Part shown: piece after piece, positions 5,689 through 27,956 of the stretch
Position numbering within the stretch: the stretch's first letter is position 1
Layout of the letters: each line of letters starts with the position of its first letter
Source: Candidatus Iainarchaeum sp.
GTDB taxonomy: Archaea; Iainarchaeota; Iainarchaeia; Iainarchaeales; CSSED10-239
Assembly: GCA_037441475.1 (NCBI GenBank)
Contig: JBBISB010000001.1
Span: 638,988-670,987 of the forward strand
Direction: 5' to 3'
DNA length: 32,000 bases
Translations under genes and position numbers: made by a program
The notes under the pieces: model-generated
The model's input: only the letters and a program-made list of their open reading frames with translations
What the model was told of the DNA's origin: nothing
The model's database searches: none

Positions 5689-7125
5689 ATGATATCCTTA
5701 AACACATGGAACACTTTATATGAAGGCAAGTATGCTGATCAAGAGCTTAGTGTTCTCTATAAAGACGATATCTTTGTTTCTTTCTTAAGGTTAAGAGATA
5801 AAACAAATGTCTTAATACAGGTATATAAGGTTTTTGTTGTTAAAGGAGAGATTGAAACTTTTGCATCCACTCTTCCATACCCTGCTATTGTTTATCATAA
5901 GCATGTGGATATTGGTTCTTCAAATAACTTTAAGTATCTTTTATTACATACAGACACAGAGTATATAGATGTAAATACTCTTTCATATCATGTAGATAAA
6001 AAAATAACTGAACTAAATAAAATGATTGGTTCTGTAATCTCTGTTGTTAAGTCATATAACATTAAGTTAATTTCTTTAAAACTTGCAGAAAAAAGAGATA
6101 ATGATTATTTTTTTTCAGATCCTGAAATCTTAAAATCACTTTCAAACATGCCTCTTTCCTTAGACTTTAAATCTTCAACACCTTTAGATAAGTTAATCCT
6201 AGGTAAAAAGAAAGACGTAACAGTTACAACCTCTCTTTCAAACCTAAAGAATGTAACCGTCTATGGTCCTCTTCTTGATGAAAGGTTGTTTGTTTCAAAG
6301 TTAATATGTGAAAATTATTTACTTTCTTCAAAAACAGTTATTGTCTTTGATACTTTAAACAACTATGTTAGTTTAGGGTATCCTCAACAAAACTCCAAGG
6401 TCTTAGAGGACTTTGAACTTAATATGGATGCTTTTGGTTTTCCAGTTAAAAAAATAAATTACTTAGATATTAATATTCCTCTAAGCAAAATACCTTTTGA
6501 TGCTTTTGTAAATCTTTTTTCTTTTAAGGATGTTTCTTTAAAGATAATAAACCAGGTTTACAGTAAAGATATAATCACTGTTAAAGATCTTATTTCAAGT
6601 GTTAAAAAAATAAAAGTTGATCAAGAGATTAATGATTTTGAAAAACAAAGAGTAATTTCAAAATTAATGGTCTTAGATAAAAAATATGGTTCTTTCTTTG
6701 GAAAATCAGATATTTCTTTACTTTTTAAACAAAGATATCAAAATATTGGTTCTGTAAAGATAATTACCTTAAACCCTAAAGACCCTATTTACCCTTTCTT
6801 TATAAAAAACCTTGTTGAAGAGATTTCTTTGTCTGTTAAAGATGAGGTTTTATTGGTTTTTCCTGAGTTAAGTGCTGTTTTCAATAATCTTTATTTAGGA
6901 AGCAGTATAATGCAGACAATAAAAGATAATTCCACCTTAAACTCCTTAATAACAAGCAAGTCTGAAAATGACTTTAGGGAGGGTGTTTTTCCAGGTGTAA
7001 AGATACATGCCATAAAGGATAATGATGCTGTTATCTATTACCCTAACAGAGACCCTATAAGGCTTCTTTTAAGACCTACTTTTACATCTAGTGTTATTAA
7101 TTATAAGCTTAAGGACAAGTTTTAG
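5689..7125 (+). CDS. hypothetical protein; possible degenerate HerA/FtsK-like (DUF87-type) ATPase fold lacking a P-loop
   Basis: 478 aa. The segment LGKKKDVTVTTSLSNLKNVTVYGPLLDERLFVSKLICENYLLSSKTVIVFDTLNNY mirrors the HerA layout, but GxxGSGKS is replaced by GPLLDERL. LLVFPELSAVF sits where Walker B would be. Confidence 0.3.
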   Translation: MISLNTWNTLYEGKYADQELSVLYKDDIFVSFLRLRDKTNVLIQVYKVFVVKGEIETFASTLPYPAIVYHKHVDIGSSNNFKYLLLHTDTEYIDVNTLSYHVDKKITELNKMIGSVISVVKSYNIKLISLKLAEKRDNDYFFSDPEILKSLSNMPLSLDFKSSTPLDKLILGKKKDVTVTTSLSNLKNVTVYGPLLDERLFVSKLICENYLLSSKTVIVFDTLNNYVSLGYPQQNSKVLEDFELNMDAFGFPVKKINYLDINIPLSKIPFDAFVNLFSFKDVSLKIINQVYSKDIITVKDLISSVKKIKVDQEINDFEKQRVISKLMVLDKKYGSFFGKSDISLLFKQRYQNIGSVKIITLNPKDPIYPFFIKNLVEEISLSVKDEVLLVFPELSAVFNNLYLGSSIMQTIKDNSTLNSLITSKSENDFREGVFPGVKIHAIKDNDAVIYYPNRDPIRLLLRPTFTSSVINYKLKDKF

Positions 7126-7319: not shown

Positions 7320-8225
7320 ATGGTTAAATGTCCAGAATGTGGAAACACAAAGGTCTACAGAGATTCAAAAAGTGGAGAATATATCTGTAGTAAATGTCAT
7401 ACTGTTTTATCAGATTACCAAATAGATACAGGTAAGGATTGGAGAACTTTTGATAATTCTGAAAAACAAGATAATGTTAGTACCGGTTCACCAATGAAGT
7501 ATACAAAAATAAACAAAGGTCTTGAAACAATGATTGAAAGATCAGGAAGAGACTTGAGAGGAAACAAACTTTCCACAAAATCAAGAGCTCAGATGTACAG
7601 ACTTATTAAATGGCATAAAAGATCTTCAATATCAAACTCAGTTCAAAGAAATTTATCCATAGCTTTAACAGAACTTAAAAGAATTTCATCTTACCTTAAC
7701 ATACCAAATCCTTTAGTTGAAACAGCAGCTTTACTTTACAGAAAGACTGTTGAAAAAGGACTTATAAGAGGAAGATTAATTGAGGCTGTTGTTGCTGCTG
7801 TTCTTTACTCTGTTTGTAGGACATACAATGTTCCAAGAACATTAAATGAAATGGCTGAAGCTTCAGGTCTTACAAAGAAAGAAATTGGAAGAACATATAG
7901 GTTTATTGTAAAAGAACTTGATATTGCTGTTCCTTTAACAGATCCTAGTTACTATATCTCAAGATTTGTTTCTGTTTTAACATTATCAGCTGAAGTTGAA
8001 AATAAAGCAAAAGTTATTGTTAAAAAAGCAATAGCATCAGGTTTAATCTCTGGAAGAGGTCCAACTGGTGTTGCTGCAGCTGCTGTTTACATAGCTGCTT
8101 TAATGACTGGTGAGAGAAGAACTCAAAAAGAGGTTGCAAATGTTGCTGGTGTAACTGAAGTAACCATAAGAAACAGATACAGAGAGCTTAAAGCAAAACT
8201 TAAGCTTAACATAGATGGAGAGTAA
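7320..8225 (+). CDS. tfb: transcription initiation factor IIB (TFB)
   Basis: N-terminal zinc ribbon CPECG...CSKC followed by two cyclin-like repeats. GAGGTG Shine-Dalgarno-like sequence a few nt upstream of the ATG. Confidence 0.95.
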   Translation: MVKCPECGNTKVYRDSKSGEYICSKCHTVLSDYQIDTGKDWRTFDNSEKQDNVSTGSPMKYTKINKGLETMIERSGRDLRGNKLSTKSRAQMYRLIKWHKRSSISNSVQRNLSIALTELKRISSYLNIPNPLVETAALLYRKTVEKGLIRGRLIEAVVAAVLYSVCRTYNVPRTLNEMAEASGLTKKEIGRTYRFIVKELDIAVPLTDPSYYISRFVSVLTLSAEVENKAKVIVKKAIASGLISGRGPTGVAAAAVYIAALMTGERRTQKEVANVAGVTEVTIRNRYRELKAKLKLNIDGE

Positions 8226-8301
8226 AATCTCTTTCTTTTCTTTTTCTTTTTAATTTAAATAATAAATACTATTTATAATTTATTTGTTTTATAAATATCA
8301 T

Positions 8302-8763
8302 ATGGAACCAATTAAGATATCTTATAAGTAAGTAGAAGATTGGTGCAGAAAGATCTATCTTCAAGCAAAGAAACAAAACTATTCTCCTGATATTCTTTTA
8401 GGAATATCTGTTGGTGGTCTTTTCCCTACAGTTCATCTTGCAAGACTTTTTAACACTAAAAATGTTGTTAGTATAGCTGTTAAGTCCTATGATAAAAACA
8501 AAAGAGGAAAGATAGAAGTTATTAACCTTCCCTCAAAACAACTTTTAAAAAATAAAAAAATATTAATTATTGATGAGATCCTTGATTCTGGAAAAACAAT
8601 TGAATTTATTTCTTCACTTTTAATAAACAAATTTCAGGTAAAAGAAATTAAGACAGCAACCATATATGTTAATAAAAAAAACTGTTCCTTCTATCCTGAT
8701 TTCTATGTTAAAACAAACCCCCAGTGGCTTGATTTTCCATGGGATAGATTTGAAAAGGTTTAG
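8302..8763 (+). pseudogene. purine/xanthine-guanine-type phosphoribosyltransferase interrupted by an in-frame TAA at codon 10
   Basis: Absent from the ORF track. Frame from ATG 8302 reads MEPIKISYK*VEDWCRKIYLQAKKQNYSPDILLGISVGGLFPTVHLARLF...KKILIIDEILDSGKT...FPWDRFEKV*. ILIIDEILDSGKT is a PRPP-binding motif. The stop is at 8329-8331, and no ATG/GTG/TTG follows in frame. Confidence 0.6.
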
Positions 8764-9890: not shown

Positions 9891-10586
9891 ATGAGGGGTT
9901 TTATGACCGATATAAATAGTAAAGTAAAAAAGTCTTTTGAGTCAATTAATAAGAATCTTTATAGGACAAACAAGGTTTTAGAGCTTTATAACCCATTACA
10001 TGATATAATAAACAGCTTAATAAACGATTATAAAGAAATTTATGAAATAGGAAAGAAAAACGAACATTTAGAAAAAGAAATTGAAGAAGAAATTAAAAAA
10101 AGAGAGCTCATCTCTTTGTTTAAGAAAATGCATTTAACTGTTGCTGAAATTAAAGAGGAAATGGATATTTTCTATAAAGAGATGCAAGATGCAGATAAGT
10201 TTTTTGAAAAATACAGAACATACAGAACATATGTTTTTACAGATACTTTAAAGGCAAAAGACTATATCCAAAAACTAATCTCTTCCTTTGACATTAAAGA
10301 CTTTATTTTAAAGTTTAATGTTGTTGGAACCATTGATCTTTCAGACATTTCAACAAAAGTAAAAGGTAAAAAACAAGGTATTGATATAGTTGTTCCATCT
10401 GAAAACCTTGGTTTAATCTTTGATGAAATCTTAAAGTCTAAGACAGTTAAGTTTAGATTAGTATCTGATGCTATAACCATCTATTTCGAGAAAGACATTA
10501 TTCTTTATATAGAAGGACAAAGTAAGAAAATCAAGTTATGTGATATTGAAGCACAAAACTTTAATGCTAAGGTTATTGAAGATTAA
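9891..10586 (+). CDS. hypothetical protein (true start probably ATG 9903)
   Basis: 231-aa ORF. A GAGGGG Shine-Dalgarno-like sequence sits just upstream of the second ATG (9903). Coiled-coil-like N-terminal half, beta-rich C-terminal half. Immediately upstream of scpA. Confidence 0.45.
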   Translation: MRGFMTDINSKVKKSFESINKNLYRTNKVLELYNPLHDIINSLINDYKEIYEIGKKNEHLEKEIEEEIKKRELISLFKKMHLTVAEIKEEMDIFYKEMQDADKFFEKYRTYRTYVFTDTLKAKDYIQKLISSFDIKDFILKFNVVGTIDLSDISTKVKGKKQGIDIVVPSENLGLIFDEILKSKTVKFRLVSDAITIYFEKDIILYIEGQSKKIKLCDIEAQNFNAKVIED

Positions 10587-10633
10587 AAAAAACCTTAGTC
10601 TTTTTATTCTTTTTTAAACATGATTATTTCATT

Positions 10634-11299
10634 ATGGATAGATTAATAACAATCATTGACCAACCAAACTGGAAACTACTATTATTTGATTTAGTTAAAT
10701 CAAATGATTTTGATATTTGGAACATTGATATAGTATCCTTAACAGAGCTTTATTTAAAAAAAATAATTCAGCTTAAAGAGGGTAATTTAATGGTTCCTGC
10801 AAATGCTCTTTTAGCTGCCAGTATTCTACTTAAAATAAAAACATATACCTTAAAGCTTACAAGCATAGAACCTGAAGAAGAATTAATAATACCAAAAGAA
10901 GAGGATCTTTTGCTTAATGCTTTAAATCTTGATAACCAAATAAGGAATAAAGAAGGACAAGTTTCTTTAGATGACTTAATAGAAGCCATTGATTCTATAA
11001 TGAATAGACCAACTAAAAAGAACTTAGAAAAAATGATTAAGGAAAAAGCTGAAATTGAATTTATTCTTCCAAGGACTATTGAAGACATTAACTACAGGAT
11101 AGATGTTCTTTATACCTCTATTAAAAAACAAGCTGATGATGAAGGTTGTTTAACTTTTAAAAAACTTTTTTCAAATAACATTAATAACTTTGATGTTGTA
11201 AACAATCTTTTTATACCTCTTTTATTTCTTCATCAAGAAGAAAAAATAAATGTTTGGCAAGATGACTTTTTTTCTGAAATTTTTATAAAAGTTATTTAA
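10634..11299 (+). CDS. scpA: segregation and condensation protein A (kleisin ScpA)
   Basis: N-terminal WKLLLFDLVKSNDFDIWNIDIVSLTELYLKKI...ALLAASILLKIKT matches the ScpA signature region. Confidence 0.7.
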   Translation: MDRLITIIDQPNWKLLLFDLVKSNDFDIWNIDIVSLTELYLKKIIQLKEGNLMVPANALLAASILLKIKTYTLKLTSIEPEEELIIPKEEDLLLNALNLDNQIRNKEGQVSLDDLIEAIDSIMNRPTKKNLEKMIKEKAEIEFILPRTIEDINYRIDVLYTSIKKQADDEGCLTFKKLFSNNINNFDVVNNLFIPLLFLHQEEKINVWQDDFFSEIFIKVI

Positions 11300-11357
11300 T
11301 TTTTTCTTTTTAAGTAATTTTTTCTTTTTTCTTTGTTTAATCTTTTTTTTAAAAACT

Positions 11358-11400
11358 TTAACACATATTTATAAATATTATGTATGTATATTTTATCTAT
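11358..11400 (+). promoter_or_regulatory. conserved promoter block with TATA box (TTTATAAATA, 11368-11377) for pilin-signal adhesin gene 1
   Basis: The 43-nt block ttaacacatatttataaatattatgtatgtatattttatctat recurs at 13270-13312 with 40/43 identity upstream of the paralog. The same TTTATAAATAT box is seen upstream of other genes in the window. Confidence 0.55.
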
Positions 11401-11433
11401 TTTGTAGTTATTATTTAAGAAGGACCTTGTCTT

Positions 11434-13218
11434 ATGAAAAAAATAAAAAAACTTATTTCTAAAAATAAAGATGTGAAAAAAGATATGAATCATAATAAAA
11501 AAGCTCAAGTCTCAATTGAGATGATTGTTATTTTAGGAATATTGATTTTAGGTGCTGTTATTTTAGCAACCTTTCTAGGTCTTTTTGGTGAAAAAACAAC
11601 CCAGTTAACAGATCTTAATGAAGTTGCTGAAGGTACTTTTGATGGTTTTTTAAATAATTTAGGAAATTCTTCAGATGGAAGTTTCCCACAGCAGCCAGGA
11701 GGTACAGGAATAAACTATACTTTAACATTAATTCCAAACAATGCATCTTTTGGAACAGCAAACACCTCTGGTAGTTATCAGTCAGGTTCTTTAGTAACTG
11801 TTACAGCAACTCCTAGTGCAGGTTATTCTTTTGTAAACTGGACAATCACTTCAACAGGTGTTGTTGCAAGTACAAATGCAAGTTATTCTTTTACAATGCC
11901 AACAAACAATTTAGGTTTAACAGCTAATTTTTCTTCAAAAGCTCCTACCTTATATACCTTATCATTAGTTGAAAATCCAAATGAACCTAATGCAACATTG
12001 ATTGGTGCTGGAAGTTATGCCGCAGGAACAGTAGTTTCAGTTTCCATAACCACTACAGGTTCAATATTTTTTAATAATTGGACAAACCAAGGCGGAACTG
12101 TAGTAAGCTCTGTTGCAAATTTTAATTATACAATGCCTGCAAGTAATACAACATTAACAGCAAACTTTTCTACTGCTGCAACTATGGTTTCTTATTTCAC
12201 TTCTACATGGGATACAACAAAAACAAGCCCAGGTTCTTCTAATAGTAATCAAATAAAATTACCATTAGTTCCAACAGGGACATATAACTTCGTTGTTTAT
12301 TGGGGAGATAGAACTACAAACACTATAACCACTTGGAATTCTTCAAATGCAACCCATACATACTCTTCACCTGGAGAGTACACAATATATATCTCAGGTG
12401 TAATAAATGGATTTTCATTTAATAATTCTGGAGATAAATTAAAATTATTACGAATAGGTTCTTGGGGTCAATTAAACTTAGGAAATACAGGTGGTTATTT
12501 CTATGGTGCACAAAATCTAGAAATAGATGCAGCAGATTCTCTTGATTTAAGAGGAACAACAAATTTATCTTCTATGTTTAGAGATTGTTCTTCAATTACA
12601 ACTATTCCTTCATTAAATAAATGGGATGTTACATATGTAACTGATATGAGTTCAATGTTTTCATATGCAACTTCATTTAATGCTCCTTTAAATACTTGGG
12701 ATGTTAGAAATGTAACAAATATGTCTGGGATGTTTAATGGAGCTACTTCTTTTAATCAATATATAAATGACTGGGACACTTCAAATGTTAGTGATATGCA
12801 ATACATGTTTTTAGGTGCAGAAAAATTTAACCAGCCCTTAAACCAATGGAATGTTTCAAATGTTAGAAATATGGCTGGAATGTTTGCAAGTGCACAGAAT
12901 TTTGATCAACCTTTAAACAGTTGGGATGTTTCGAAGGTAACGCTTATGGAGGGTATGTTTGGTAATGCGTATTCTTTTGATCAGCCTTTAGATAGATGGG
13001 ATATTTCAAACGTTATTTTTATGGATTATTTTTTTGGAGATATAACTTTATCCACTAAAAATTATGATGCAATATTAAATTCTTGGGCTAATCAAAAATT
13101 AAAACAAAATGTTGTTTTTGATGCAGGGTATAGTAAGTATAGTTCTTCTGGTGAAGCTGCAAGAGATGTATTAATTAAAAACTATAATTGGACTATTAAA
13201 GATGGCGGTCTTCAGTAA
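11434..13218 (+). CDS. large surface protein: class III (type IV pilin-like) signal peptide + 2 InlB-B-type repeats + DUF285/BspA-like repeat domain
   Basis: N-terminus ...MNHNKKA|QVSIEMIVILGILILGAVILATFL has the QxSxE motif plus a hydrophobic helix. The alternative start at 11485 would give a short signal. Repeats of the form Y.L.L..N...G.....G.Y..G..V.V.ATP..GY.F.NWT. The C-terminal half has about 7 repeats of the form FN.PLN.WDVSNVT.M..MF. Confidence 0.8.
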   Translation: MKKIKKLISKNKDVKKDMNHNKKAQVSIEMIVILGILILGAVILATFLGLFGEKTTQLTDLNEVAEGTFDGFLNNLGNSSDGSFPQQPGGTGINYTLTLIPNNASFGTANTSGSYQSGSLVTVTATPSAGYSFVNWTITSTGVVASTNASYSFTMPTNNLGLTANFSSKAPTLYTLSLVENPNEPNATLIGAGSYAAGTVVSVSITTTGSIFFNNWTNQGGTVVSSVANFNYTMPASNTTLTANFSTAATMVSYFTSTWDTTKTSPGSSNSNQIKLPLVPTGTYNFVVYWGDRTTNTITTWNSSNATHTYSSPGEYTIYISGVINGFSFNNSGDKLKLLRIGSWGQLNLGNTGGYFYGAQNLEIDAADSLDLRGTTNLSSMFRDCSSITTIPSLNKWDVTYVTDMSSMFSYATSFNAPLNTWDVRNVTNMSGMFNGATSFNQYINDWDTSNVSDMQYMFLGAEKFNQPLNQWNVSNVRNMAGMFASAQNFDQPLNSWDVSKVTLMEGMFGNAYSFDQPLDRWDISNVIFMDYFFGDITLSTKNYDAILNSWANQKLKQNVVFDAGYSKYSSSGEAARDVLIKNYNWTIKDGGLQ

Positions 13219-13230
13219 TCCTTTTTTTTA
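13219..13230 (+). terminator. oligo-T archaeal-type terminator after adhesin gene 1
   Basis: T8 run at 13222-13229, directly after the TAA stop at 13216-13218. Confidence 0.4.
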
Positions 13231-13269
13231 AAAATAATTAGTAATTATCTTATTTAGTAATTATCTTAT

Positions 13270-13312
13270 TTAACACATGTTTATAAATATTATGTATTAA
13301 TATTTTATCTAT
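13270..13312 (+). promoter_or_regulatory. conserved promoter block with TATA box (13280-13289) for pilin-signal adhesin gene 2
   Basis: Duplicate of the 11358-11400 block (40/43 identical). Preceded by a 16-nt tandem duplication, ttagtaattatcttat x2, at 13238-13269. Confidence 0.55.
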
Positions 13313-13351
13313 ATACATCCTTATGTTATAAAATTATAAGCGTCTTTAATT

Positions 13352-16150
13352 ATGAAGAAAATAAAAAATAAATTAGTTATTAAAAAAAAAGAGAAGAAAG
13401 ATATGAATAAAAATAAAAAAGCCCAGGTCTCAATAGAGATGATAATTATTTTATCTGTTTTAATTTTAGGGGCAGTAGTATTTGCATCTTTACTTCTAGG
13501 CTTTTTTAATAAAAGTGTTGATAGAAACACAGATGTTGATGATGTAGCAAGTAATACTGTTAATAGCTTCATTAAAGATCTTGTAAATTATAATGATAGT
13601 AATAATCAAACCACTCCAAGTCCAACACCAATATTTTATAATCTAGTATTAACTCCAAACAATCCTTCTTTTGGAACAGCAAACACCTCTGGTAGTTATC
13701 AGTCAGGGTCTTTAGTAACTGTTACAGCAACTCCTAGTGCAGGTTATTCTTTTGTAAACTGGACAATCACTTCAACAGGTGTGGTTGCAAGTACAAATGC
13801 AAGTTATTCTTTTAATATGCCTTCAAGTAATTTAAGCTTATCAGCAAACTTTGTTTTAGCCCCTCCTACAAACTGTACTTTAACCTTAAACAGAAATCCT
13901 GTTTCAGGTGGAACAGTTTCAGGCGCAGGGACTTTTCCTTGTAATTCTTCTGTGACAGCAACAGCAACTCCTGCAATTAACTATGCTTTCACTAATTGGA
14001 CAACAACAAGTGGGACTGTTACAACAAACCATTATACTTTTAATTTAAATTCTTCTCAAACATTAACAGCAAACTTTACACCTTCTGCTTATAATCTTAA
14101 TTTAACAAAATCAGGAAGTGGAACTGGAACTGTTACAAGTTCTCCTGTTGGTATATCTTGTGGTTCAAGTTGTACTACAGCATCTTATGCTTTTCCTGTT
14201 AATCAACTTGTTACTTTAACAGCAACTGTTGTTAGTGGACATACTTTTGCAGGTTGGTCAGGGGATTGTTCAGGCACAAATCAAACCTGTACTGTTACAA
14301 TGTCTCAAGCAAGAAATGTAACTGCAACTTTTAATCTTCCAAACATATATTTATTATCTGTATCTAAAGAAAATCCGCTTGGTGGCTGGGTTGTAAGTTC
14401 TGGACCTACCCTAGGTATTAGTTGTGGTTCTGATTGTTCTGAAATTTATTCTTTAGGAGTTAATGTTTCTTTAACAACAACAAATCTTCTTCCAGGTTAT
14501 ACTTTTGTTGAATGGAGAGATGCTTGTACAGGATCTGCAGCTATCTGTTCATTTACTATGGATGGTCCAAAATATGTAACTGCTGTTTTTGCTCCTATTA
14601 ATCATACTTTAAATGTAAATAAAGTAAATCCTTCTTACGGTCTTGTACAGACTGTTTCTCCATCTACAGGAATTATCTGTGGTCTTGATTGCTCTGAAAG
14701 TTATTTTTATGGAACTAATGTTACTTTAAATGCTTCTGGTTTAAGTGGGGGAACTTTTGCAAGATGGTCTGGTGCTGGTTGTTCAGGCACAGATAACTGT
14801 ATAGTTACAATGGATGCTGCAAAAACTGTAACTGCAACTTTTAATGCTCCTGTTTCAAATTATTTATTAACTGTTAATAAGAATGGTACTGGTTCAGGAA
14901 GAGTTGTAAGTTCTACAATAGGTATTGATTGTGGAAGTACATGTTCTGCAAATTATGCTCAAGGAACAGTTATTAGTTTAACAGCTAATCCTGATGCAGG
15001 AAATACTTTTACTGGATGGTTAGGAGATTGTTCTGGAACTGGTCAATGTTTTGTGACTATGGATTCTGCAAAAAATGTTACTGCTGTATTTAATGCTACT
15101 AATTCATTCATTTCTAAATGGGTTACAAATAATTCTGAAGAAAGTAATTCTAATCAAATAAAATTACCGCTTGTTTCTTCTGGAACTTATAAATTTACAG
15201 TATATTGGGGAGATGGAACTACAAATACTATAACCACTTGGAATTCTTCAAATGCAACCCATACATACTCTTCACCTGGAGAGTACACAATATATATCTC
15301 AGGTGTAATAAATGGATTTTCATTTAATAATTCTGGAGATAAACTTAAATTAACTCAAATTTCAAAGTGGGGACCATTAAGACTTGGAAATACAGGTTCT
15401 TATTTCTATGGTGCACAAAACCTAACAATAACTGCAACAGATGTTTTAGATTTAACTGGTACTACAAATTTATCTTTAATGTTTAGTAACTGTTCTTCAA
15501 TAACAACAATTCCTTCTATTAATAGTTGGAATGTTTCAAATGTTACAAATATGGGATTTATGTTTTATTATGCAAGTCAGTTTAATAGTCCTTTAAATAA
15601 TTGGAATGTTTCAAATGTAACGAATATGCAGAGTATGTTTTATGGTGCAACTAATTTCAACCAACCAATCGGAGATTGGAATGTTTCAAATGTAACGAAT
15701 ATGAGTAATATGTTTTCTTATGCAACTGCTTTCAACCAACCAATCGGTTCTTGGAATGTTTCAAAAGTAACTACAATGCAAAGAATGTTTTTTCGTGCTT
15801 CTAATTTTAATAGACCTGTAGGAGATTGGAATGTTTCAAGTGTGAATAATATGGAAGGTATGTTTTTGAATGCATCTAGCTTTAATCAACCTCTTGGTAA
15901 TTGGAATCCAATAAATGTAAATAATTTTTCAATGTTTATTTCTAATACCAGGTGTTGTATTTTATCTACTGCAAATTATGATAATTTATTAATTGGATGG
16001 TCTTCTAAAAATTTGCAAAGAAATGTTAGATTAGATGTAGGTACAAGATATAGCTCAGCAGGTGAAACTGCAAGACAATCAATTATAACTAACTATAATT
16101 GGTATATTCATGATAATGGTAAGCAGTGGTTAAAAATATTTATAAATTAA
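13352..16150 (+). CDS. very large surface protein: class III signal peptide + 6 InlB-B-type repeats (4 with conserved Cys quartets) + DUF285/BspA-like repeat domain
   Basis: N-terminus ...MNKNKKA|QVSIEMIIILSVLILGAVVFASLL; alternative start at 13403. Four modules of the form GISCGS.C...Y..G..V.LTA....G.TF.GW.G.CSG...C.VTM...K.VTA.F. C-terminal WNVSNVTNM..MF..A..FNQPIG repeats. Paralog of 11434..13218. Confidence 0.8.
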   Translation: MKKIKNKLVIKKKEKKDMNKNKKAQVSIEMIIILSVLILGAVVFASLLLGFFNKSVDRNTDVDDVASNTVNSFIKDLVNYNDSNNQTTPSPTPIFYNLVLTPNNPSFGTANTSGSYQSGSLVTVTATPSAGYSFVNWTITSTGVVASTNASYSFNMPSSNLSLSANFVLAPPTNCTLTLNRNPVSGGTVSGAGTFPCNSSVTATATPAINYAFTNWTTTSGTVTTNHYTFNLNSSQTLTANFTPSAYNLNLTKSGSGTGTVTSSPVGISCGSSCTTASYAFPVNQLVTLTATVVSGHTFAGWSGDCSGTNQTCTVTMSQARNVTATFNLPNIYLLSVSKENPLGGWVVSSGPTLGISCGSDCSEIYSLGVNVSLTTTNLLPGYTFVEWRDACTGSAAICSFTMDGPKYVTAVFAPINHTLNVNKVNPSYGLVQTVSPSTGIICGLDCSESYFYGTNVTLNASGLSGGTFARWSGAGCSGTDNCIVTMDAAKTVTATFNAPVSNYLLTVNKNGTGSGRVVSSTIGIDCGSTCSANYAQGTVISLTANPDAGNTFTGWLGDCSGTGQCFVTMDSAKNVTAVFNATNSFISKWVTNNSEESNSNQIKLPLVSSGTYKFTVYWGDGTTNTITTWNSSNATHTYSSPGEYTIYISGVINGFSFNNSGDKLKLTQISKWGPLRLGNTGSYFYGAQNLTITATDVLDLTGTTNLSLMFSNCSSITTIPSINSWNVSNVTNMGFMFYYASQFNSPLNNWNVSNVTNMQSMFYGATNFNQPIGDWNVSNVTNMSNMFSYATAFNQPIGSWNVSKVTTMQRMFFRASNFNRPVGDWNVSSVNNMEGMFLNASSFNQPLGNWNPINVNNFSMFISNTRCCILSTANYDNLLIGWSSKNLQRNVRLDVGTRYSSAGETARQSIITNYNWYIHDNGKQWLKIFIN

Positions 16151-16199
16151 ACTATCTTAATATATATAGATATTTTTTTTAAAAAAAAGATGATTATAT

Positions 16200-16673
16200 A
16201 TGATAAACAAAAAAGGACAAGTCTCTATTGAGTTAATTATTTTAGTTGGTATGCTTATTATAGGTGCTGTTGTTTTATCTGTTACTTTGATTAGTTCATA
16301 TAAAAAAAATATAGAAACAACAGATGATACTGCAAAAAAACAAAGTAACCTTATAGATAATTTTGTAGAAGATCTTGATGATGTTCAATCCGGAAACTCT
16401 GGAGGACAGATAAATCAATTTAGTGTTACTCTTACTAATCCACGTCCAATTAGTTATCCTCCTGGAAATGTATCTTTTAATATTTCATATGATTATAATG
16501 TAGGTCCAGTTACTTGTAATTGGGATTTAAGTTCTATGACATATGGAGAGCAAAATTTCCAAGGTTGTTCTACTTTACGTAATTTAGGTTTAGGAGAATA
16601 TACTGCAGATTACACAGTTACAGATGGTTCTAGCACTAGAACAGGGACTGTGTCCTTTAGAGTTAATAATTAA
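16200..16673 (+). CDS. small archaeal type IV pilin-like protein with Ig/PKD-like C-terminal domain
   Basis: MINKKG|QVSIELIILVGMLIIGAVVLSV matches QxSxExxxL exactly. 157 aa is a typical pilin size. The C-terminal beta-rich segment (YTADYTVTDGSSTRTGTVSFRV) resembles a PKD/Ig fold. Confidence 0.7.
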   Translation: MINKKGQVSIELIILVGMLIIGAVVLSVTLISSYKKNIETTDDTAKKQSNLIDNFVEDLDDVQSGNSGGQINQFSVTLTNPRPISYPPGNVSFNISYDYNVGPVTCNWDLSSMTYGEQNFQGCSTLRNLGLGEYTADYTVTDGSSTRTGTVSFRVNN

Positions 16674-16687
16674 ATTAAAGATTTTTT

Positions 16688-17152
16688 ATGGACCAAACAA
16701 GTAGTGATTACCTTAAGCAAGCAATAGAGGCAATCCTCTTTTTATCCCCAAAATCTATTTCTTTATCAAAGATATATGCCTCTTTTCCAAACATCCCAAA
16801 GAACATAATAGATATCCAGATAGATGACTTGATAAACAGTTATCAAAAAAGACAAACATCTTTAGAAATTGTAAAAGATAACAATAAACTTGAAATTGTT
16901 GTAAAACCAGAGTTTCATTCCTTTAACATCTTTGCAACAGGAACAACTCTCTCAAAATCAGAGCTTAAGACCTTAGCCTTCATCTCTTTAAATGCCCCAG
17001 TAGAGCAAGCAAAGATAAGTAAGAAAAGACCTTTTGAAGATCTAAAGATATTAAAAGACCTAGATCTAATATCTATTGAAAAGAAGGGACGAAAGAATAT
17101 CTTACAAACAACCAAAAAATTTTCTCTTCTCTTTAAAAATAAGAAAAAGTAA
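16688..17152 (+). CDS. scpB: segregation and condensation protein B (ScpB)-like
   Basis: 154 aa. The N-terminal AIEAILFLSPKSISLSKI is a typical ScpB winged-helix start. Shorter than bacterial ScpB. Confidence 0.6.
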   Translation: MDQTSSDYLKQAIEAILFLSPKSISLSKIYASFPNIPKNIIDIQIDDLINSYQKRQTSLEIVKDNNKLEIVVKPEFHSFNIFATGTTLSKSELKTLAFISLNAPVEQAKISKKRPFEDLKILKDLDLISIEKKGRKNILQTTKKFSLLFKNKKK

Positions 17153-17190: not shown

Positions 17191-19638
17191 ATGAATAAAA
17201 CTATTTATGTGGTGAAAAATATTATGAAAAATAAATATATATTATTAATTTTACTTTTAGTTCTTTTAGTACCAAACATCTTTGCATTGGTACCAAATGC
17301 AAATATGAAGATATTTGCTGTTGCTGGAGATAAAGGAGCACAAGATGCAACCCTTAACATAAAGATTGTTCCTGGTGCCGGAAAGATATTCTCTTCAATA
17401 GATGAATCAATAGTAGGTTCATCCACCCAAGAGTCTTTTAAAAATGCAATTTCTGTTGCAAATAAAAATATTGGAAACAACATACGTTCAAAGTATGATT
17501 TTACAGTTGATATTGAATCAAGTGCATACAGTATAGATGGGCCATCAGCAGGAGGAGCAATGGCTCTTTTAATAATTTCAATGTTTAAAGATACTCCAGT
17601 AAGTAATAAAGTAAGTATGACAGGAACAATTACAGCTGATGGTTATATAGGGGATGTTGGTGGAGTTTATCAAAAAACAAAAAAAGCAGCTGAAGTAGGT
17701 ATAAAGCTTTTCTTTGTTCCACAAGGTAACAGAACACAAGTTATTAATGAAGGTGGAAATATTCAGCAAATTGACCTTATTGAGTATGCTTACAAGGAAT
17801 GGGGACTTAAGATAATAGAAGTTTCAACCATGGATGAAATCTTAGCTTACGCTTTTAGAGACATTGATTCAATAGATATAAATACTACTCAAAAAGAAAA
17901 AGTTGATGATTTTATTTATACCTCTATAAGTTATTCAAAAGCAGTTGAACCTTTTAAAGATGTTACTTATAATTACATAAAACAAACTGATGAAAAGTTA
18001 GTTAATGTTAAAAAACACTTAGCTTCTTCAAGTATAAAAGATACTGAGGTTTTACAAAATCTATTATCTACCATAAACTATTCTGAAGAACTTTTAAATG
18101 TTGCAAACAAATATTATCAATACAATTATTTTTATTCTGCAGCAAACAATTCATTTTTAGCATATGTAAATGTTATTACTGTAGATGAGATTATAACAAA
18201 CCCATCCATCTTAGCAGACTCTTCAATAATCTTTAACTTAAGGATTAAAGAGCTTGAAGAAAAGATAACCTTAACTGAAAATAGATCCTACAACTGTTCT
18301 CTTGAAAACCTAGAGTGGTGTGTTGGTGCAAGACAAAGAGTTACATGGGCAAGAGATAAACTTGAAAAAATAAGTGTGACTTCCACTTCTAATAATTTTA
18401 CAAAAATACAAGATTATGCTTATGCTGTTGCATGGACAGATATTGCAAATAGTTTTTTAGACCTCTCAATTACAAAAACAAATATTTATTTTGTAGAGTC
18501 AGGATATTTTAAAAAACAAGCACAAGATAATATAATCTCTGTTGAAAATCAATTGATATTAGTTGCACCAGAAATAGCAACTAGTGAAGACTTAAGAAGA
18601 AGACTTGATGCTGCTAAAAGAAACTATGATAGAGAATGGTATGTGACCTCTCTTTATGATTCAGCAACTGCTTTAGCTGTTATAAAAACACAAGAGGAAA
18701 ATAAAAATACAATTTCAACAACAGCATTTACTGCAAAGTATGATCTTTTAGCCTCAAAGTTAAGATCTCAAGCAGCAATGAATAATGAAAATAATGTTTG
18801 GTCAAAGACTTTCTTAGACCATGCCATCTATTATTATAATGCATATAATGAAAATAAAATGAAAGATGAAGAAAAAGCAAAATCAAATATGAATGTTTCA
18901 AACTCAATCTTAAATTTTTCAAACTACTTATATGATGTTGAGACTTTAGTTTTAGATTATTACCTTAATACAGATATTGATGCTTTAATAGTTGATATTA
19001 CAAGTTCAACAGAAGGTTCAGTTATAATTGTTAATAAAAATAATGAACCTATAAAACAAGTTTCTTCACAGAATGTATATGTTTACAGTAAAGAAAGAAA
19101 AGACTTTAATCTTTATTTAATTGTTGCAGCTTTGTTCTTAATGATTGTAGCTATTATTGTTGAGGTTGAAAGGTTTAAAAGATACCATTCAAAGGAAGGA
19201 ATAATAAAGCAAATAGGTTACTTAGATGAAAAGCTTCTTGATGGAAAGATTAGTTCTTTTACCTATAAGGAAATGAGAGAGAAGTATCTTTTAGAGCTTG
19301 AAAAAATAAAATCTAAAGAAGCATCTAAAAAGAAAGAGTTAAAGAAAACAGAAGATGTTTTAACCTCTGCAGATGAACTTGAAAAAAGAGTAATTGATAA
19401 ACAAATAGAGGAACTTGAAAGAAGAAGAAAAGAAATTTCTCTTAGAGGAAAAAGTGAATCTATTAAGAGTGTTAAAGAGATTGTTTCAAACATCAAGCCT
19501 ACAGTTAAGGAAGATGTTAAAAAACAAGAAACTTTTAAAAAACCTTCTTTAAAAAAAGAAACTTCTTCTAAAAAAGAAGAAATTAAAAAAAAAGAAACTA
19601 AAAAGAAAAAGGATCTTTCAATTAAGAAAGGTCTTTAA
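17191..19638 (+). CDS. membrane-anchored Lon-like (S16) serine protease domain protein without an AAA+ module
   Basis: Signal-peptide-like MKNKYILLILLLVLLVPNIFA (probable start 17224). S16 catalytic motifs IDGPSAGGAMALL (Ser) and GDVGGVYQKTKKAAEVG (Lys). About 450-aa helical region, one TM helix (LYLIVAALFLMIVAIIVEV), and a ~160-aa Lys/Glu-rich tail. Confidence 0.7.
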   Translation: MNKTIYVVKNIMKNKYILLILLLVLLVPNIFALVPNANMKIFAVAGDKGAQDATLNIKIVPGAGKIFSSIDESIVGSSTQESFKNAISVANKNIGNNIRSKYDFTVDIESSAYSIDGPSAGGAMALLIISMFKDTPVSNKVSMTGTITADGYIGDVGGVYQKTKKAAEVGIKLFFVPQGNRTQVINEGGNIQQIDLIEYAYKEWGLKIIEVSTMDEILAYAFRDIDSIDINTTQKEKVDDFIYTSISYSKAVEPFKDVTYNYIKQTDEKLVNVKKHLASSSIKDTEVLQNLLSTINYSEELLNVANKYYQYNYFYSAANNSFLAYVNVITVDEIITNPSILADSSIIFNLRIKELEEKITLTENRSYNCSLENLEWCVGARQRVTWARDKLEKISVTSTSNNFTKIQDYAYAVAWTDIANSFLDLSITKTNIYFVESGYFKKQAQDNIISVENQLILVAPEIATSEDLRRRLDAAKRNYDREWYVTSLYDSATALAVIKTQEENKNTISTTAFTAKYDLLASKLRSQAAMNNENNVWSKTFLDHAIYYYNAYNENKMKDEEKAKSNMNVSNSILNFSNYLYDVETLVLDYYLNTDIDALIVDITSSTEGSVIIVNKNNEPIKQVSSQNVYVYSKERKDFNLYLIVAALFLMIVAIIVEVERFKRYHSKEGIIKQIGYLDEKLLDGKISSFTYKEMREKYLLELEKIKSKEASKKKELKKTEDVLTSADELEKRVIDKQIEELERRRKEISLRGKSESIKSVKEIVSNIKPTVKEDVKKQETFKKPSLKKETSSKKEEIKKKETKKKKDLSIKKGL

Positions 19639-22877: not shown

Positions 22878-23318
22878 CTAATTATTAAAAGCAATTTTTT
22901 TATGCATATAGTATTTAACAAAGAAAATTACCATAACTGTTATTATCTTTGAAAAGATATACCATACCCCTAGATACTCTGTTAATATCTTTACAAAAAT
23001 AACATGCATACAAAGATCAATTACCGAGATTATTAAAAAATCAATAAACTTATGAGTAGATGTCTTTATCTTATTCTCTTTAAAAGTGTATTTTTTATTT
23101 CCAAAGAAGGCAATAAGCATCCCTACAAGATATGATAGTTTAACTGACAATAAATAGAATATACCAATAAACTCTGTTAATACATATAAAGAAACTATAT
23201 CTGCTATGGTTGCTATTACTGAAAAGAAAGAATATTTTCCAATAGTCCTTACTCTTTTAAAGATAGGGCTTATCTTTTCAAGAAAATCAAATAGTTTATC
23301 AAGATAATTACTTTTCAT
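22878..23318 (-). CDS. GtrA-family membrane protein (putative lipid-linked sugar translocation component)
   Basis: 146 aa with four TM helices. The FFSVIATIADIVSLYVLTE...FFGNKKYTF pattern is typical of GtrA-like proteins. Confidence 0.65.
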   Translation of the reverse strand: MKSNYLDKLFDFLEKISPIFKRVRTIGKYSFFSVIATIADIVSLYVLTEFIGIFYLLSVKLSYLVGMLIAFFGNKKYTFKENKIKTSTHKFIDFLIISVIDLCMHVIFVKILTEYLGVWYIFSKIITVMVIFFVKYYMHKKIAFNN

Positions 23319-23400
23319 TTATAAATCAGTCTGCTTTATATTTATTTTGAAAGTTAAATATATATATAACAACTTAAATGTTTATAAATATTGATTTTTA

Positions 23401-24141
23401 ATGTATAATAATAAAAAAGTAATAATTGTGTTTCCTGCATACAATGCACAAACAACTTTAGAAAAAACAGTTAAGGACATCCCTAAAGAGTATGTGGATG
23501 AAATGATACTGGTTGATGACTTTTCAACAGATAACACTGTTTCTCTTTCTAAACAATTAGGTCTTACCACTATAAAGCACACTAAAAACAAAGGGTATGG
23601 TGCAAATCAAAAGACTTGTTATAAAGAAGCTTTAAAAAGAGGGGCTGATGTTATTATAATGATACACCCAGACTACCAGTATGATCCTAGGATACTAAAT
23701 AAAATGATTATCCCTATTGCTGAAGGAAAGGTTGATGCTGTCTTTGCTTCAAGGTTTTTAAACAAAAAAGATCCTTTGAAAGGTGGTATGCCTTACTATA
23801 AGTATCTAGGAAACAGATTTTTAACATTTTTTGAAAACTTTATACTTCAAACTTCCTTAAGTGAGTTTCATACAGGATATCGTTCATTTTCAAAAGAGGT
23901 TTTAAAAGATCTACCTTTAAATAAAAACTCAGATAATTTTGTTTTTGATACTCAGATAATCATACAGATGGTTTTAAGAAAATATAAAATAAAAGAAGTT
24001 GCTGTTGAGACAAGGTATTTTCCAGAGGCCTCTTCAATTAATTTAAAGGCATCAATTGTTTATGGGCTTTCAATCTTAAGAGAGCTTGTAAAGTATCTTT
24101 TAACAAAATGGAGAATTAAAAGATATTCTCTTTATTCTTAA
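23401..24141 (+). CDS. family 2 glycosyltransferase, polyprenyl/dolichyl-phosphate sugar synthase-like (GtrB/DPM1-like)
   Basis: VIIVFPAYNAQTTLEKTV...ILVDDFSTDNT...GYGANQK...DADV-type GT-A/GT2 signature. 246 aa and soluble. Confidence 0.8.
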   Translation: MYNNKKVIIVFPAYNAQTTLEKTVKDIPKEYVDEMILVDDFSTDNTVSLSKQLGLTTIKHTKNKGYGANQKTCYKEALKRGADVIIMIHPDYQYDPRILNKMIIPIAEGKVDAVFASRFLNKKDPLKGGMPYYKYLGNRFLTFFENFILQTSLSEFHTGYRSFSKEVLKDLPLNKNSDNFVFDTQIIIQMVLRKYKIKEVAVETRYFPEASSINLKASIVYGLSILRELVKYLLTKWRIKRYSLYS

Positions 24142-25586
24142 TTTAGTTTATAGATATACTGTTTTGTGTTATTAAAAGAATCTGTGTAAACAAGAGTGTA
24201 TTTTTCAGAAAGTAGATCTTTAAACAAACCTAGTTTTTCAAAGCACTCTATATCTTCTTCTCTCCAACACTCTAAGTTTCTTTCTTCATAGAAAATATAT
24301 TTTAAAGGTTGGTTTTGTGTAGTTACACTATAGGCATAGAAAGGTCCTGAAAGATAGATTATTTTACTTTTTTCATTGTACACGCCATACAATGGATTAT
24401 CAACAGCTATAAGCCCTGAAAAGTCATTATCTGTTCTTTGAATATATGTGTAATACTCTTCTATCTCTTGAAACTTGGTGTGTTTATTGTTGTTTACTTG
24501 TTCATTGATTGCCATTGAAAAATTAAATACTAAAACCATAACTAATATTATTTCTATTATGGTTATTAGTCTCTTATAGTTTACTTTTTCAATAACCTCC
24601 ATAATACCAAAACCACCTAAGATAACAAAGAAAGGTAAGGCACTAAAGAAATATCTTGCCTCATAATGTACAAGGCTTGAGATGTATATGTAATAAAGTA
24701 AAGCTATTGTTAATGGAACTAATAATTTATTTTCTAAAAATAACCTTCTTGTCTTTTTAAAAAGAATACCCATTAAAAAAGCTAAGATAACAAACACTAA
24801 TAAAAAGTTTTGAGAGAATAGATATTTTAAATAATAAATAAAACCATTTGTTACAAGATCATACGAGTTTGCAGCAACCATCTGAGAGGCATGTGTAAAT
24901 GGTATTATTATCTTTTGAAAGAAAGGTAAGGTTATTTTTTTAAGTAAAAAATAATTAATTAAAATAAAAGGAATAACAAGTAAAGAAAAACCTACCCCAT
25001 AGTTAAAGATATTTTTAATATTTTTAAATCTTCTTTCCTTTATCAGTTCAATAAGTAAAAATACTCCAAGTATACCAAAGACAAGTCCTGAAGGGTACCT
25101 GAAAAGAAAAGCAAGAGATAGAATAACCCCTGATAGAAAATATCTTTTTTTAGTAAAGAAATAATAACCCATAATGGATAGAGCTGCCCCTGGAATCTCA
25201 GTTAAAAGTCTGTTTGTAAACACCACTATTGAAGATAAGGAGGCAAACAAGAGGGTGGTTATAACCCCACTTCCTTTCTTTATATCCTCTGATATTTTAT
25301 ATAGATAAAATAAACCTAAAATAAAGATTAAACCTAAGAGAATCTTTGTAAAAATAACCTCATTTACACCAATAAACCAAAATAAACCAATTAAGAGACT
25401 AAGTATGGGTGGTCTTTGGTATTCATAGGTTGAAACCTCTCCTGCTGAAAATAAAAACTTTCCATTATTTGTATAAACAGCTTCATCCCAGTATGGCATG
25501 TAGTTTATCACTGCATAGGTTATGGTTAATATAAATATTAGGATAAGTACTAAATTTATCTTTTTAAAGAGCTTTTCTTTTAACAT
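24138..25586 (-). CDS. GT-C fold membrane glycosyltransferase (GT39/GT83, ArnT/PMT-like)
   Basis: 482 aa with 10 or more TM helices. First-loop acidic motif YWDEAVY followed by RPPILSLLIG, as in the ArnT/PMT family. Confidence 0.7.
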   Translation of the reverse strand: MLKEKLFKKINLVLILIFILTITYAVINYMPYWDEAVYTNNGKFLFSAGEVSTYEYQRPPILSLLIGLFWFIGVNEVIFTKILLGLIFILGLFYLYKISEDIKKGSGVITTLLFASLSSIVVFTNRLLTEIPGAALSIMGYYFFTKKRYFLSGVILSLAFLFRYPSGLVFGILGVFLLIELIKERRFKNIKNIFNYGVGFSLLVIPFILINYFLLKKITLPFFQKIIIPFTHASQMVAANSYDLVTNGFIYYLKYLFSQNFLLVFVILAFLMGILFKKTRRLFLENKLLVPLTIALLYYIYISSLVHYEARYFFSALPFFVILGGFGIMEVIEKVNYKRLITIIEIILVMVLVFNFSMAINEQVNNNKHTKFQEIEEYYTYIQRTDNDFSGLIAVDNPLYGVYNEKSKIIYLSGPFYAYSVTTQNQPLKYIFYEERNLECWREEDIECFEKLGLFKDLLSEKYTLVYTDSFNNTKQYIYKLN

Positions 25587-27347: not shown

Positions 27348-27365
27348 TGTGTACAAGTGTACACA
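27348..27365. promoter_or_regulatory. perfect inverted repeat TGTGTACA-AG-TGTACACA, candidate operator of the MNT-HEPN pair
   Basis: 8-bp arms with a 2-bp spacer, 13 nt upstream of ATG 27378. The downstream gene begins with a winged-helix domain. Confidence 0.45.
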
Positions 27366-27377
27366 AATAGTGGTCGT

Positions 27378-27956
27378 ATGTTAGACAGATTATTTTCATC
27401 AAAAACAAGAATAAACATTTTATCTTTATTAATGTTTAATCAAGATTCTTCCTTTCATCTTAGAGAGATTGCAAAATTAACTAAAAGCTTTCCTTCTCAA
27501 ACTTCTAAGGAATTATCTAATCTTGAATTATTAAATTTAATTATTAAAACAAAAAAAAGTAATCTTTCTATATATAAAATAAATAAAGATAATCTATTTT
27601 TAGCAGACTTAAAAAATATTTTTCTAAAAACTGAGTTTATAGGTTCAAAAATTAAAGAAAAATTAATTAATCAAGTAGACTTTTGTCTAATTTTTGGATC
27701 TTTTGCAAAAGGTATAGAAAATTCAAAAAGTGATCTTGATATATTAATAATATCTGATGTTTTAAAAGAAAATAATTTATTAAAGATTATTCAAGAGTTA
27801 GAAAATGATTTAAAAAGAGATATAAATTATATTTTATGGAGTAATAAAGACTTTATAAAAAAATCAAAAGATAACCATTTATTAAAAACAATTAATAAGG
27901 ATAAGATTATAATGTTAATTGGAGATGAGAATAATTTCAGAAGAAAAATCAATTGA
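27378..27956 (+). CDS. wHTH-fused minimal nucleotidyltransferase (MNT), antitoxin-type partner of HEPN
   Basis: N-terminal ArsR-like wHTH (TRINILSLLMFNQDSSFHLREIAKLT). NTase motif FGSFAKGIENSKSDLDILIISD. The track GTG start at 27357 lies inside the palindrome, so ATG 27378 is preferred. Confidence 0.7.
   Translation: MLDRLFSSKTRINILSLLMFNQDSSFHLREIAKLTKSFPSQTSKELSNLELLNLIIKTKKSNLSIYKINKDNLFLADLKNIFLKTEFIGSKIKEKLINQVDFCLIFGSFAKGIENSKSDLDILIISDVLKENNLLKIIQELENDLKRDINYILWSNKDFIKKSKDNHLLKTINKDKIIMLIGDENNFRRKIN

Follow-up and report, generated by a model that had tools for sequence, protein, structure and literature searches.

Three pilin-like proteins, two with adhesin-type heads, encoded between scpA and scpB in a Forterrea-like DPANN archaeon

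The 32,000-nucleotide stretch of Candidatus Iainarchaeum sp. DNA analyzed here (contig JBBISB010000001.1, positions 638,988 to 670,987; called the window below) encodes three neighboring genes, genes 1, 2 and 3, whose products begin with the same class III, type IV pilin-like module. Genes 1 and 2 join this module to large heads built of InlB-B repeats and a DUF285/BspA leucine-rich repeat domain, and gene 3 joins it to a small immunoglobulin (Ig)-like head. The three genes are best interpreted as archaeal modular (minor) type IV pilins that would present adhesins on an Epd/Tad-like filament, an interpretation to which we assign a probability of about 0.55. It starts from the anatomy of the sequences, the family to which the module belongs, the conserved gene order and the machinery found in relatives, and extends them to cleavage, incorporation into a filament and adhesion.

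The window is AT-rich (about 26-32% GC) and archaeal, with genes for TFB, L15e, TtuA and Trm5/Tyw2. Its source is a small-genome DPANN archaeon (Iainarchaeota/Diapherotrites) that is Forterrea-like and close to Ca. Forterrea, in line with the earlier note on this DNA, made from the letters alone, which had spoken of a small-genome archaeon. The ScpB protein of the window is 65-86% identical to the ScpB of the other archaeal metagenome-assembled genomes recovered, two of which are labeled Ca. ainarchaeum.

All three genes lie on the + strand, at window positions 11434..13218 (gene 1, 594 aa), 13352..16150 (gene 2, 932 aa) and 16200..16673 (gene 3, 157 aa). Each product contains KK(A/G)↓QVSIE(M/L)I, the arrow marking the predicted cleavage site, and then a strongly hydrophobic run of about 21 residues. 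When all six frames of the window were scanned for the core motif Q[VILTAM]S[VILMAF]E, four matches were obtained, three of which are these N-termini. Likewise, a FlaFind-type pattern combined with a hydrophobic stretch (mean Kyte-Doolittle value of about 2.8 over residues +6 to +26), selects exactly these three open reading frames in the window. The earlier note had described the three reading frames with their class III-like N-termini and had proposed such a prediction, and both the lengths and the scans bear it out. Judged from their sequences, the three N-termini are paralogues and not chance matches.

Genes 1 and 2 are paralogues along their length, with 48-56% identity between the proteins and DNA segments at 84-90% identity. 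The duplication includes a promoter-like block with a TATA-type box (TTTATAAATA) 5' of gene 1 (11357..11400, +), a second copy of which, 93% identical, lies 5' of gene 2 (13269..13312, +). These blocks may function as promoters.

In both large genes the first methionine is probably not the initiator. An in-frame Met18 (nt 11485 in gene 1, giving 577 aa; nt 13403 in gene 2, giving 915 aa) reduces the leaders to the seven residues MNHNKKA and MNKNKKA, comparable to the six-residue MINKKG of gene 3. The leaders are mostly 4-10 residues long in the paralogues of relatives and in the wider family. The Met18 start is preferred because the motif follows a short leader, usually of 4-10 residues, in 143 of 148 family representatives. 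The 24-residue leader would then be an over-extended reading frame, and its Lys-rich extension of 17 residues is probably untranslated A-rich DNA.

Alignments and the family profile place the N-terminal module of gene 1 at 11485..11667 (+), with predicted cleavage before Q25 and with the two helix halves alpha1-N and alpha1-C. The module of gene 2 (MNKNKKA↓QVSIEM..., then the alpha1 helix) is at 13403..13588 (+), and gene 3 runs from MINKKG↓QVSIEL... through helix and linker into its head. The alpha1 helix has about 55-60 residues, with a hydrophobic N-terminal half and an amphipathic C-terminal half, and closes with a conserved D.F(I/V/L)..L motif that is kept in paralogues and relatives. A low-complexity linker separates alpha1 from the variable, beta-rich ectodomain.

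The Pfam model for this kind of N-terminus, Class_IIIsignal (PF04021; 27 positions, curated gathering cut-off of 23.7 bits), scores genes 1, 2 and 3 at 17.3, 14.8 and 19.5 bits, so that the formal match proposed as a check in the earlier note failed for all three proteins. The assignment itself stands on related evidence. The N-termini correspond to the Q+1/E+5 type of DUF361/UPF0333 proteins processed by EppA (PMC3875500). A 118-aa relative in locus L044 exceeds the cut-off at 28.3 bits and has weak matches to Flp1_like and TadF, and small members of the family are named 'UPF0333 family' by JGI. By motif the module can be placed in the Epd/DUF361 class, although the window proteins themselves fall below the formal Pfam cut-off. 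The archaeosortase/PIP-CTERM class III model TIGR04205 was matched by gene 3 only, at 15.9 bits and far below its cut-off of 65. Comparison of the N-terminal profile with solved structures gave non-significant matches only, which included an archaeal flagellin and a Pyrobaculum pilin.

When a profile of the first ~62 residues was searched exhaustively against 1.84 billion representative proteins, at least 195 clusters were found to share the module at E<=1e-3. Gene 1 matches the resulting family profile at 1.3e-22 over residues 18-78. In a 5.8-billion-protein index, whose size makes E-values stringent, the 62-residue profile matched only two small proteins. From the 195 clusters 148 sequences were fetched, and 143 of them have [GAS]↓Q(V/I)(S/T)(I/L/V)(E/D) behind a short basic leader. 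These proteins are 43-2123 aa long (median 324). Thirty-eight have at most 120 aa, many of them being helix-only, and 45 exceed 500 aa. With about 70-90 aa, the helix-only members are comparable in size to the major pilin of Methanococcus maripaludis (74 aa).

In an alignment of the 83 long members, whose heads are unrelated, only Q+1 and E+5 are fully invariant, and K-2 and S+3 nearly so. Such conservation is expected of N-termini that undergo prepilin processing and assembly, not of a simple membrane anchor. Class_IIIsignal is detected at E<=1e-3 in 14 of the same 83 proteins. The domains fused to them are mostly of adhesin or carbohydrate-binding type: CHB_HEX_C_1/Fn3_assoc in 17, GLUG in 13, Flg_new_2 in 11, Lcl_C in 5, RCC1 and Fib_succ_major in 2 each, and PKD, Big_7 and DUF285 (1). 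Heads are also exchanged on nearly identical N-termini, as in the pair P0022, which carries DUF285, and P0125, which carries Fib_succ_major. The combination of the module with DUF285 recurs in the published Ca. Forterrea genome and in a more distant relative (ScpB 52% identical), where a 509-aa DUF285 member, P0266, lies at scpA/scpB and adjoins a 79-aa helix-only member. A fourth member of the family in the organism studied here, P0138 (814 aa; Flg_new_2, Fn3_assoc and CHB_HEX_C_1), is encoded elsewhere on the contig (L015, 7762-12445). P0138 adjoins a gene for a 699-aa Peptidase_M6 protein (immune inhibitor A-like).

The heads of genes 1 and 2 were recognized well above the cut-offs, which upholds the earlier calls of InlB-B repeats and a DUF285 domain. 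Flg_new_2 (InlB-B, PF18998; cut-off 23.6 bits) matches two repeats in gene 1 (3.2e-26, 91.6 bits) and six in gene 2 (2e-62, 207.5 bits), and DUF285 (PF03382; cut-off 25 bits) matches gene 1 at 1.3e-56 (189.9 bits) and gene 2 at 1.7e-57 (192.8 bits). Among the NCBIfam models, PARCEL (TIGR02167; cut-off 30) scores 75.6 bits in gene 1 and 101.8 bits in gene 2, and the TIGR02543 repeats were matched too. A map of both proteins was drawn with a local profile. The InlB-B repeats of gene 1 (aa 95-172 and 174-251) occupy 11716..12186 (+) and are followed by a BspA-family module at 12196..13215 (+), composed of a PKD-like domain (aa ~255-335) and the DUF285/PARCEL leucine-rich repeats (aa ~336-594). 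The six repeats of gene 2 (aa 96-173, 175-248, 259-331, 346-419, 431-501 and 517-585) occupy 13637..15106 (+), and its PKD-like domain and DUF285/PARCEL region, with six W(N/D)VSxV units, lie at 15119..16126 (+). In both proteins the InlB-B repeats thus give way to a PKD-like sandwich and then to DUF285 units of 25 residues. The DNA repeats mirror these protein periodicities at 75 nt and about 250 nt. Each of repeats 3-6 of gene 2 has four cysteines.

Comparison of gene 1 with the sequences of solved structures gave no match at E<=0.001. Its BspA module has thousands of homologues, which are mostly bacterial, often sorted by the type IX secretion system (T9SS), with some archaeal ones. Among the 119 other proteins in the top 120 homologues of this module, this pilin-like N-terminus was found in just one, P0022. 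An adhesive role for the heads of genes 1 and 2 is suggested by the domain families to which they belong.

The proteins of genes 1 and 2 are rich in N-x-S/T sequons (21 in gene 1 and 40 in gene 2). Genes for GtrA-like, GT2 and Alg9/PMT-like glycosyltransferases are found about 6 kb downstream, at window positions 22878-25586. Because of the dense sequons and the nearby glycosyltransferase genes, both proteins are candidate glycosylation substrates and may be glycoproteins.

The protein of gene 3 was modeled with AlphaFold. The single-sequence model had a predicted local distance difference test score (pLDDT) of 47; the model made with an alignment of 14 sequences consists of a helix at aa 3-61, a low-confidence linker at aa 62-74 and a confident seven-strand beta-sandwich (pLDDT ~95) at aa 75-155. 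Among solved structures the sandwich is closest to Ig, PKD, FN3 and carbohydrate-binding module (CBM) domains of a generic kind, so that the head proposed as Ig/PKD-like from its sequence is a confident beta-sandwich of that kind. Two cysteines in it are conserved.

The genes with the shared N-terminus are situated between scpA (10634..11299, +), which forms the upstream boundary of the cassette by synteny, and scpB (16688..17152, +), which begins 14 nt past the stop codon of gene 3. With this spacing gene 3 and scpB are probably co-transcribed. One to three such genes separate scpA from scpB in all Forterrea/'ainarchaeum' relatives tabulated. The cassette encodes proteins of 127, 705 and 258 aa in Forterrea (L012), 127, 798 and 262 aa in L003, 161 and 581 aa in L009, 899 aa in L011, and 76 and 162 aa in L021; two helix-only members occur inside the cassettes of relatives. 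A metagenome scan with the module gave 27 loci, in 13 of which class III genes adjoin one or both of the scp genes, in relatives with ScpB identity as low as about 52%. The remaining loci lie mostly on contigs too short to reveal the scpA/scpB neighborhood. In the most distant relatives (L022/L031 and L046) the cassette lies just upstream of an intact scpA-scpB pair.

The content of the cassette changes much faster than its surroundings. In the closest relatives ScpB is 86-90% identical, whereas identity falls to about 30-48% for the cassette proteins, which also vary in how many there are and in the domains they carry. An unrelated 7.8 kb insertion with ABC-transporter and AAA_14 genes occupies the interval in L042. 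The divergent cassette proteins, the head swaps and the unrelated insertions make the interval a conserved, fast-evolving hotspot. The earlier note had passed over the conserved scpA/scpB position, the duplicated promoter-like block and the rapid turnover of heads. Apart from the most distant relatives, scpA and scpB, which are usually adjacent, are separated by the class III cassette throughout the lineage, as surveyed in L003, L009, L011, L012, L021-L027, L031, L034, L039, L041-L043, L045 and L046. The link may be functional or may reflect no more than a hotspot for insertions.

Filament machinery is present in relatives. Several Diapherotrites loci share a conserved cluster that consists of a T2SSE ATPase of about 760 aa, closest to the FlaI/TadA models, a T2SSF-like protein of 720-776 aa, whose match is just under the cut-off, and several small proteins with (K/R)G↓Q N-termini of class III type. 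The scpA/scpB cassette (L011) and this T2SSE ATPase (L007) occur together on contig JAQVTI010000001.1 of Ca. ainarchaeum. In L044 the genes for the 118-aa family member and for an ATPase point toward each other, and this ATPase shares 84% identity with the one in L007.

The L044 locus also contains, at 9986-15103, a 93-aa duplicate of the ATPase C-terminus and an inserted AAA_14 gene between the 118-aa member and the full T2SSE ATPase, an arrangement that looks like the scar of an insertion into a pilin/ATPase locus. An S_layer_C gene flanks the 118-aa member on the opposite side. The ATPase clusters are flanked by genes of more than 1,400 aa in L017, L018 and L020 and by a 1,305-aa gene in L016. 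An exosortase/archaeosortase-like gene (27.8 bits against a cut-off of 25.7) lies beside the cluster in L020, at 8028-8516.

A scheme can be proposed in which the leader is removed at KK(A/G)↓Q by a prepilin peptidase of the EppA/PibD type, after which the alpha1 helix would leave the membrane and join an Epd/Tad-like type IV filament, assembled by an ATPase of the FlaI/TadA family together with a platform protein resembling TadC. Genes 1 and 2 would be low-abundance or tip-located modular pilins displaying InlB-B/BspA adhesin modules, with gene 3 as the small Ig-headed pilin of the set. The displayed heads, probably heavily N-glycosylated, would attach to host cells or surfaces, and the cassette at scpA/scpB would be the site at which heads are duplicated, swapped and expanded. 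Tip or sparse placement is proposed since heads of 500-850 residues are hard to fit within a filament body. Modular pilins are favored because Q+1, E+5 and the alpha1-C motif are maintained across unrelated heads, because helix-only members occur in the same family and cassette, because Q+1 pilins cluster with ATPases in the lineage, and because precedents exist in the bacterial modular pilins and in archaeal class III proteins with large heads.

Several observations weigh against this interpretation. Besides the Class_IIIsignal scores below the cut-off, the module consists of the helix alone, alpha1-C lacking the globular pilin domain that would pack against it, and the size of the heads is itself a difficulty. 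The cassette of this genome is devoid of a helix-only candidate for a major pilin and does not lie at a filament-machinery locus. Within the window neither the annotated genes nor a screen of the unannotated reading frames for polytopic peptidases and ATPases gave a convincing pilus ATPase, platform protein or prepilin peptidase, as the earlier note had also observed. A search with the T2SSE ATPase of a relative returned at least 120 near-equivalent matches at 62-85% identity (most at 63-69%), none of which can be assigned to this genome, and a Peptidase_A24 gene was found in none of the fetched loci. P0312 and P0371, considered as the ATPase of this genome, were rejected, as both are found in other assemblies.

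The main rival is that the proteins serve as surface anchors. The leader would again be cleaved by a prepilin peptidase; however, the helix would then hold an adhesin coat in or above the membrane, alone or as short pseudopilus-like stalks, in the manner of a bindosome and with no long filament. This is possible, and is considered appreciably less probable than incorporation into a filament. Large class III proteins encoded away from the machinery follow the pattern of the Sulfolobus sugar-binding proteins; both the cassette at scpA/scpB and P0138, beside its Peptidase_M6 gene, are remote from filament genes, and flexible linkers with very large heads would suit display at the cell surface. 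These points count in favor of an anchor. On the other hand, the heads are adhesin repeats and not substrate-binding domains, there is no ABC transporter adjacent, the helix-only members of about 70-90 aa would be anchors that hold nothing, and mere anchoring would not call for the observed conservation of E+5 and the alpha1-C motif. An ordinary Sec-dependent signal, in which an uncleaved type II anchor or a Sec signal resembles a pilin only superficially, is improbable. The sub-threshold PF04021 scores, the lack of a peptidase gene in the window and the non-significant matches of the N-terminal profile to solved pilins and archaellins speak for it. It accounts poorly for the invariance of Q+1 and E+5 across the 83 long members, for the junction of a charged residue, Gly or Ala, and Gln in 143 of 148 sequences, for the related members that exceed the Pfam cut-off or are named UPF0333, and for the occurrence of the same junction in pilin-like genes of the ATPase clusters of the lineage.

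The large reading frames might also be an artifact in which mis-assembled or chimeric repeats became joined to a small pilin gene. The NCBI record GCA_964526055.1 (CAZGHU010000001.1) has a 100-N gap within the gene 2 repeats, at window positions ~14913-15097, and the left flank of this gap differs from the window over 14968-15097. As a result, the gene caller split gene 2, of which only a 363-aa C-terminal fragment is called in that record, and the number of InlB-B repeats in gene 2 is uncertain. However, gene 1 is intact in that record and identical to the window, gene 3 and both ends of gene 2 are identical too, and orthologous full-length fusions are found in genomes assembled independently, among them the complete one of Ca. 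Forterrea. There is little doubt, then, that the fusions are genuine; the doubt is confined to the repeat number of gene 2, and an artifact at the level of the fusion is very improbable.

A more far-reaching version of the modular-pilin interpretation is suggested by the absence of a head-less major pilin from the cassette of this genome. In Forterrea-like DPANN archaea an adhesive 'bottle-brush' pilus might consist largely or wholly of head-bearing subunits. Their repertoire would owe its diversity to the hypervariable cassette, which is conserved beside scpB and probably shares its transcript, so that host attachment would be tied to a chromosome-segregation/cell-cycle operon. This is a speculation to which we give only a small chance. 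If true, ultrasmall archaea would create and control the specificity of their host binding by a route not described before.

Some other genes of the window may be mentioned. Directly downstream of scpB, in this genome and in all relatives, is a gene for an 815-aa protein (17191-19638) that starts with a signal-like helix at its N-terminus and continues with a Lon_C (S16) protease domain, an extended helical part, a single C-terminal transmembrane segment and a Lys-rich tail; it may be a Lon-like protease that acts outside the cytoplasm. At 27357-28254 a nucleotidyltransferase gene (Polbeta/NTP_transf_2) overlaps a HEPN gene, a typical toxin-antitoxin-like pair. At 156-1904 on the - strand a GH3-family enzyme (acyl-acid amido synthetase-type) with all three GH3 domains is encoded, which is unusual for a minimal DPANN genome; it is kept in the syntenic L003 locus, as is a 478-aa reading frame (5689-7125) with only a weak match to DUF87/HerA (E 4e-4).

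Two further DUF285 proteins from DPANN archaea, both homologues of gene 1, P0002 ('KKSVSPLIATVLLIAF...') and P0079 ('KKAISPLIATVLIVLV...'), have N-termini of the 'SPLIATVL' type, which Pfam does not recognize as a pilin family. These N-termini may resemble the other archaeal pilin type, DUF1628-like, a likeness that Pfam did not confirm. If they are a second type of pilin, BspA modules have been fused to pilin-like N-termini more than once.

Little is known of how DPANN archaea recognize hosts or surfaces and hold on to them, and the majority of their surface proteins carry the annotation 'hypothetical'. Modular pilins may be their means of attachment. Grafting of a binding module onto a pilin, known in bacteria, is suggested to be widespread in DPANN archaea, the carrier being an Epd/Tad-like helix-only module and the cargo (BspA/DUF285, InlB-B, GLUG and chitobiase-C-type domains) being shared with bacteria. 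The scpA/scpB cassette could serve as a marker locus for strain comparison and as a source of candidate host-specificity determinants. If the proteins are only membrane-anchored, the gain is a modest improvement in annotation.

The earlier note had presented the fusion of a pilin N-terminus to such ectodomains as an undescribed combination. This was overstated, since the clusters that share the module, at least 195 in number, already combine it with many adhesin-type domains, and the architecture is present, unremarked, in public genomes including that of Ca. Forterrea, the paper on which makes no mention of pili or pilins. The general concept is also known. What stands is the particular combination: in the literature no description was found of class III/DUF361 modules fused to DUF285/InlB-B adhesins in archaea, or of the scpA/scpB cassette. 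The genes are not a categorically new system, and the incorporation of their products into a filament is a proposal.

Among known systems, the bindosome and class III signal peptide (SPIII) binding proteins of Sulfolobus/Saccharolobus are like genes 1 and 2 in having a class III signal on large, non-pilin ectodomains and in being encoded away from the machinery. Their heads, however, are solute-binding domains next to ABC transporters, whereas here adhesin-type repeats are found at scpA/scpB, and the three proteins have neither a substrate-binding protein domain nor an ABC transporter encoded beside them. The +5 Glu, typical of bacterial type IV pilins and present in genes 1-3, is absent in Sulfolobus and Haloferax pilins (PMC3875500). 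The heads themselves have their closest counterparts in BspA/DUF285 proteins of Mollicutes, Listeria, Bacteroidota and others, and in archaeal BspA proteins too, with the same PKD-like domain and DUF285 leucine-rich repeats at 40-55% identity; the bacterial modules are exported by Sec, lipoprotein signals or T9SS C-terminal domains, whereas here they are attached to a pilin-like N-terminus.

The N-termini are closest in type to the Epd/DUF361 pilins of M. maripaludis, whose class III signal, 5-13 residues long and with Gly as its last residue, is removed by the dedicated peptidase EppA and is followed by Gln at +1 and Glu at +5 (PMC3875500). Genes 1-3 share the short basic leader, Q+1, E+5 and the hydrophobic helix; the leader ends in Gly in gene 3 and in Ala in genes 1 and 2, where the M. 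maripaludis set has Gly. The M. maripaludis pilins range from 67-76 aa (the major pilin MMP1685 having 74 aa) to 200-299 aa (PMC3875500), and the module family similarly forms a size series from helix-only proteins of about 70-80 aa to larger pilin-like ones, although the InlB-B/DUF285 heads of about 500-850 residues are far larger than these pilins of at most ~299 aa. In both cases the genes are scattered from the machinery (PMC3875500). These pilins belong to archaeal type IV filament (TFF) system 1, which has been reported in a few DPANN archaea, and archaeal SPIII proteins with large heads have been proposed to insert into type IV filaments (bioRxiv 10.64898/2026.04.22.720090).

The closest likeness in architecture is to the bacterial modular pilins, such as PilB and PilC of Streptococcus sanguinis (Raynaud et al. 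2021, PMC8179133). There, as in genes 1-3, a pilin module is followed by a linker and a bulky, often adhesive module. The order in genes 1-3 is a module (aa 18-78 in gene 1), a linker, and then an InlB-B/PKD-like/DUF285 or Ig-like head, a match limited in that the module is helix-only and archaeal and is not IPR012902, the bacterial pilins of that family having a globular pilin fold. DUF285 and InlB-B heads are not among the bacterial examples considered (PMC8179133). The bacterial proteins number more than 1,200 in 264 architectures, are proposed to be exposed at the tip of the filament, and are common in the ultrasmall bacteria of the Candidate Phyla Radiation (PMC8179133).

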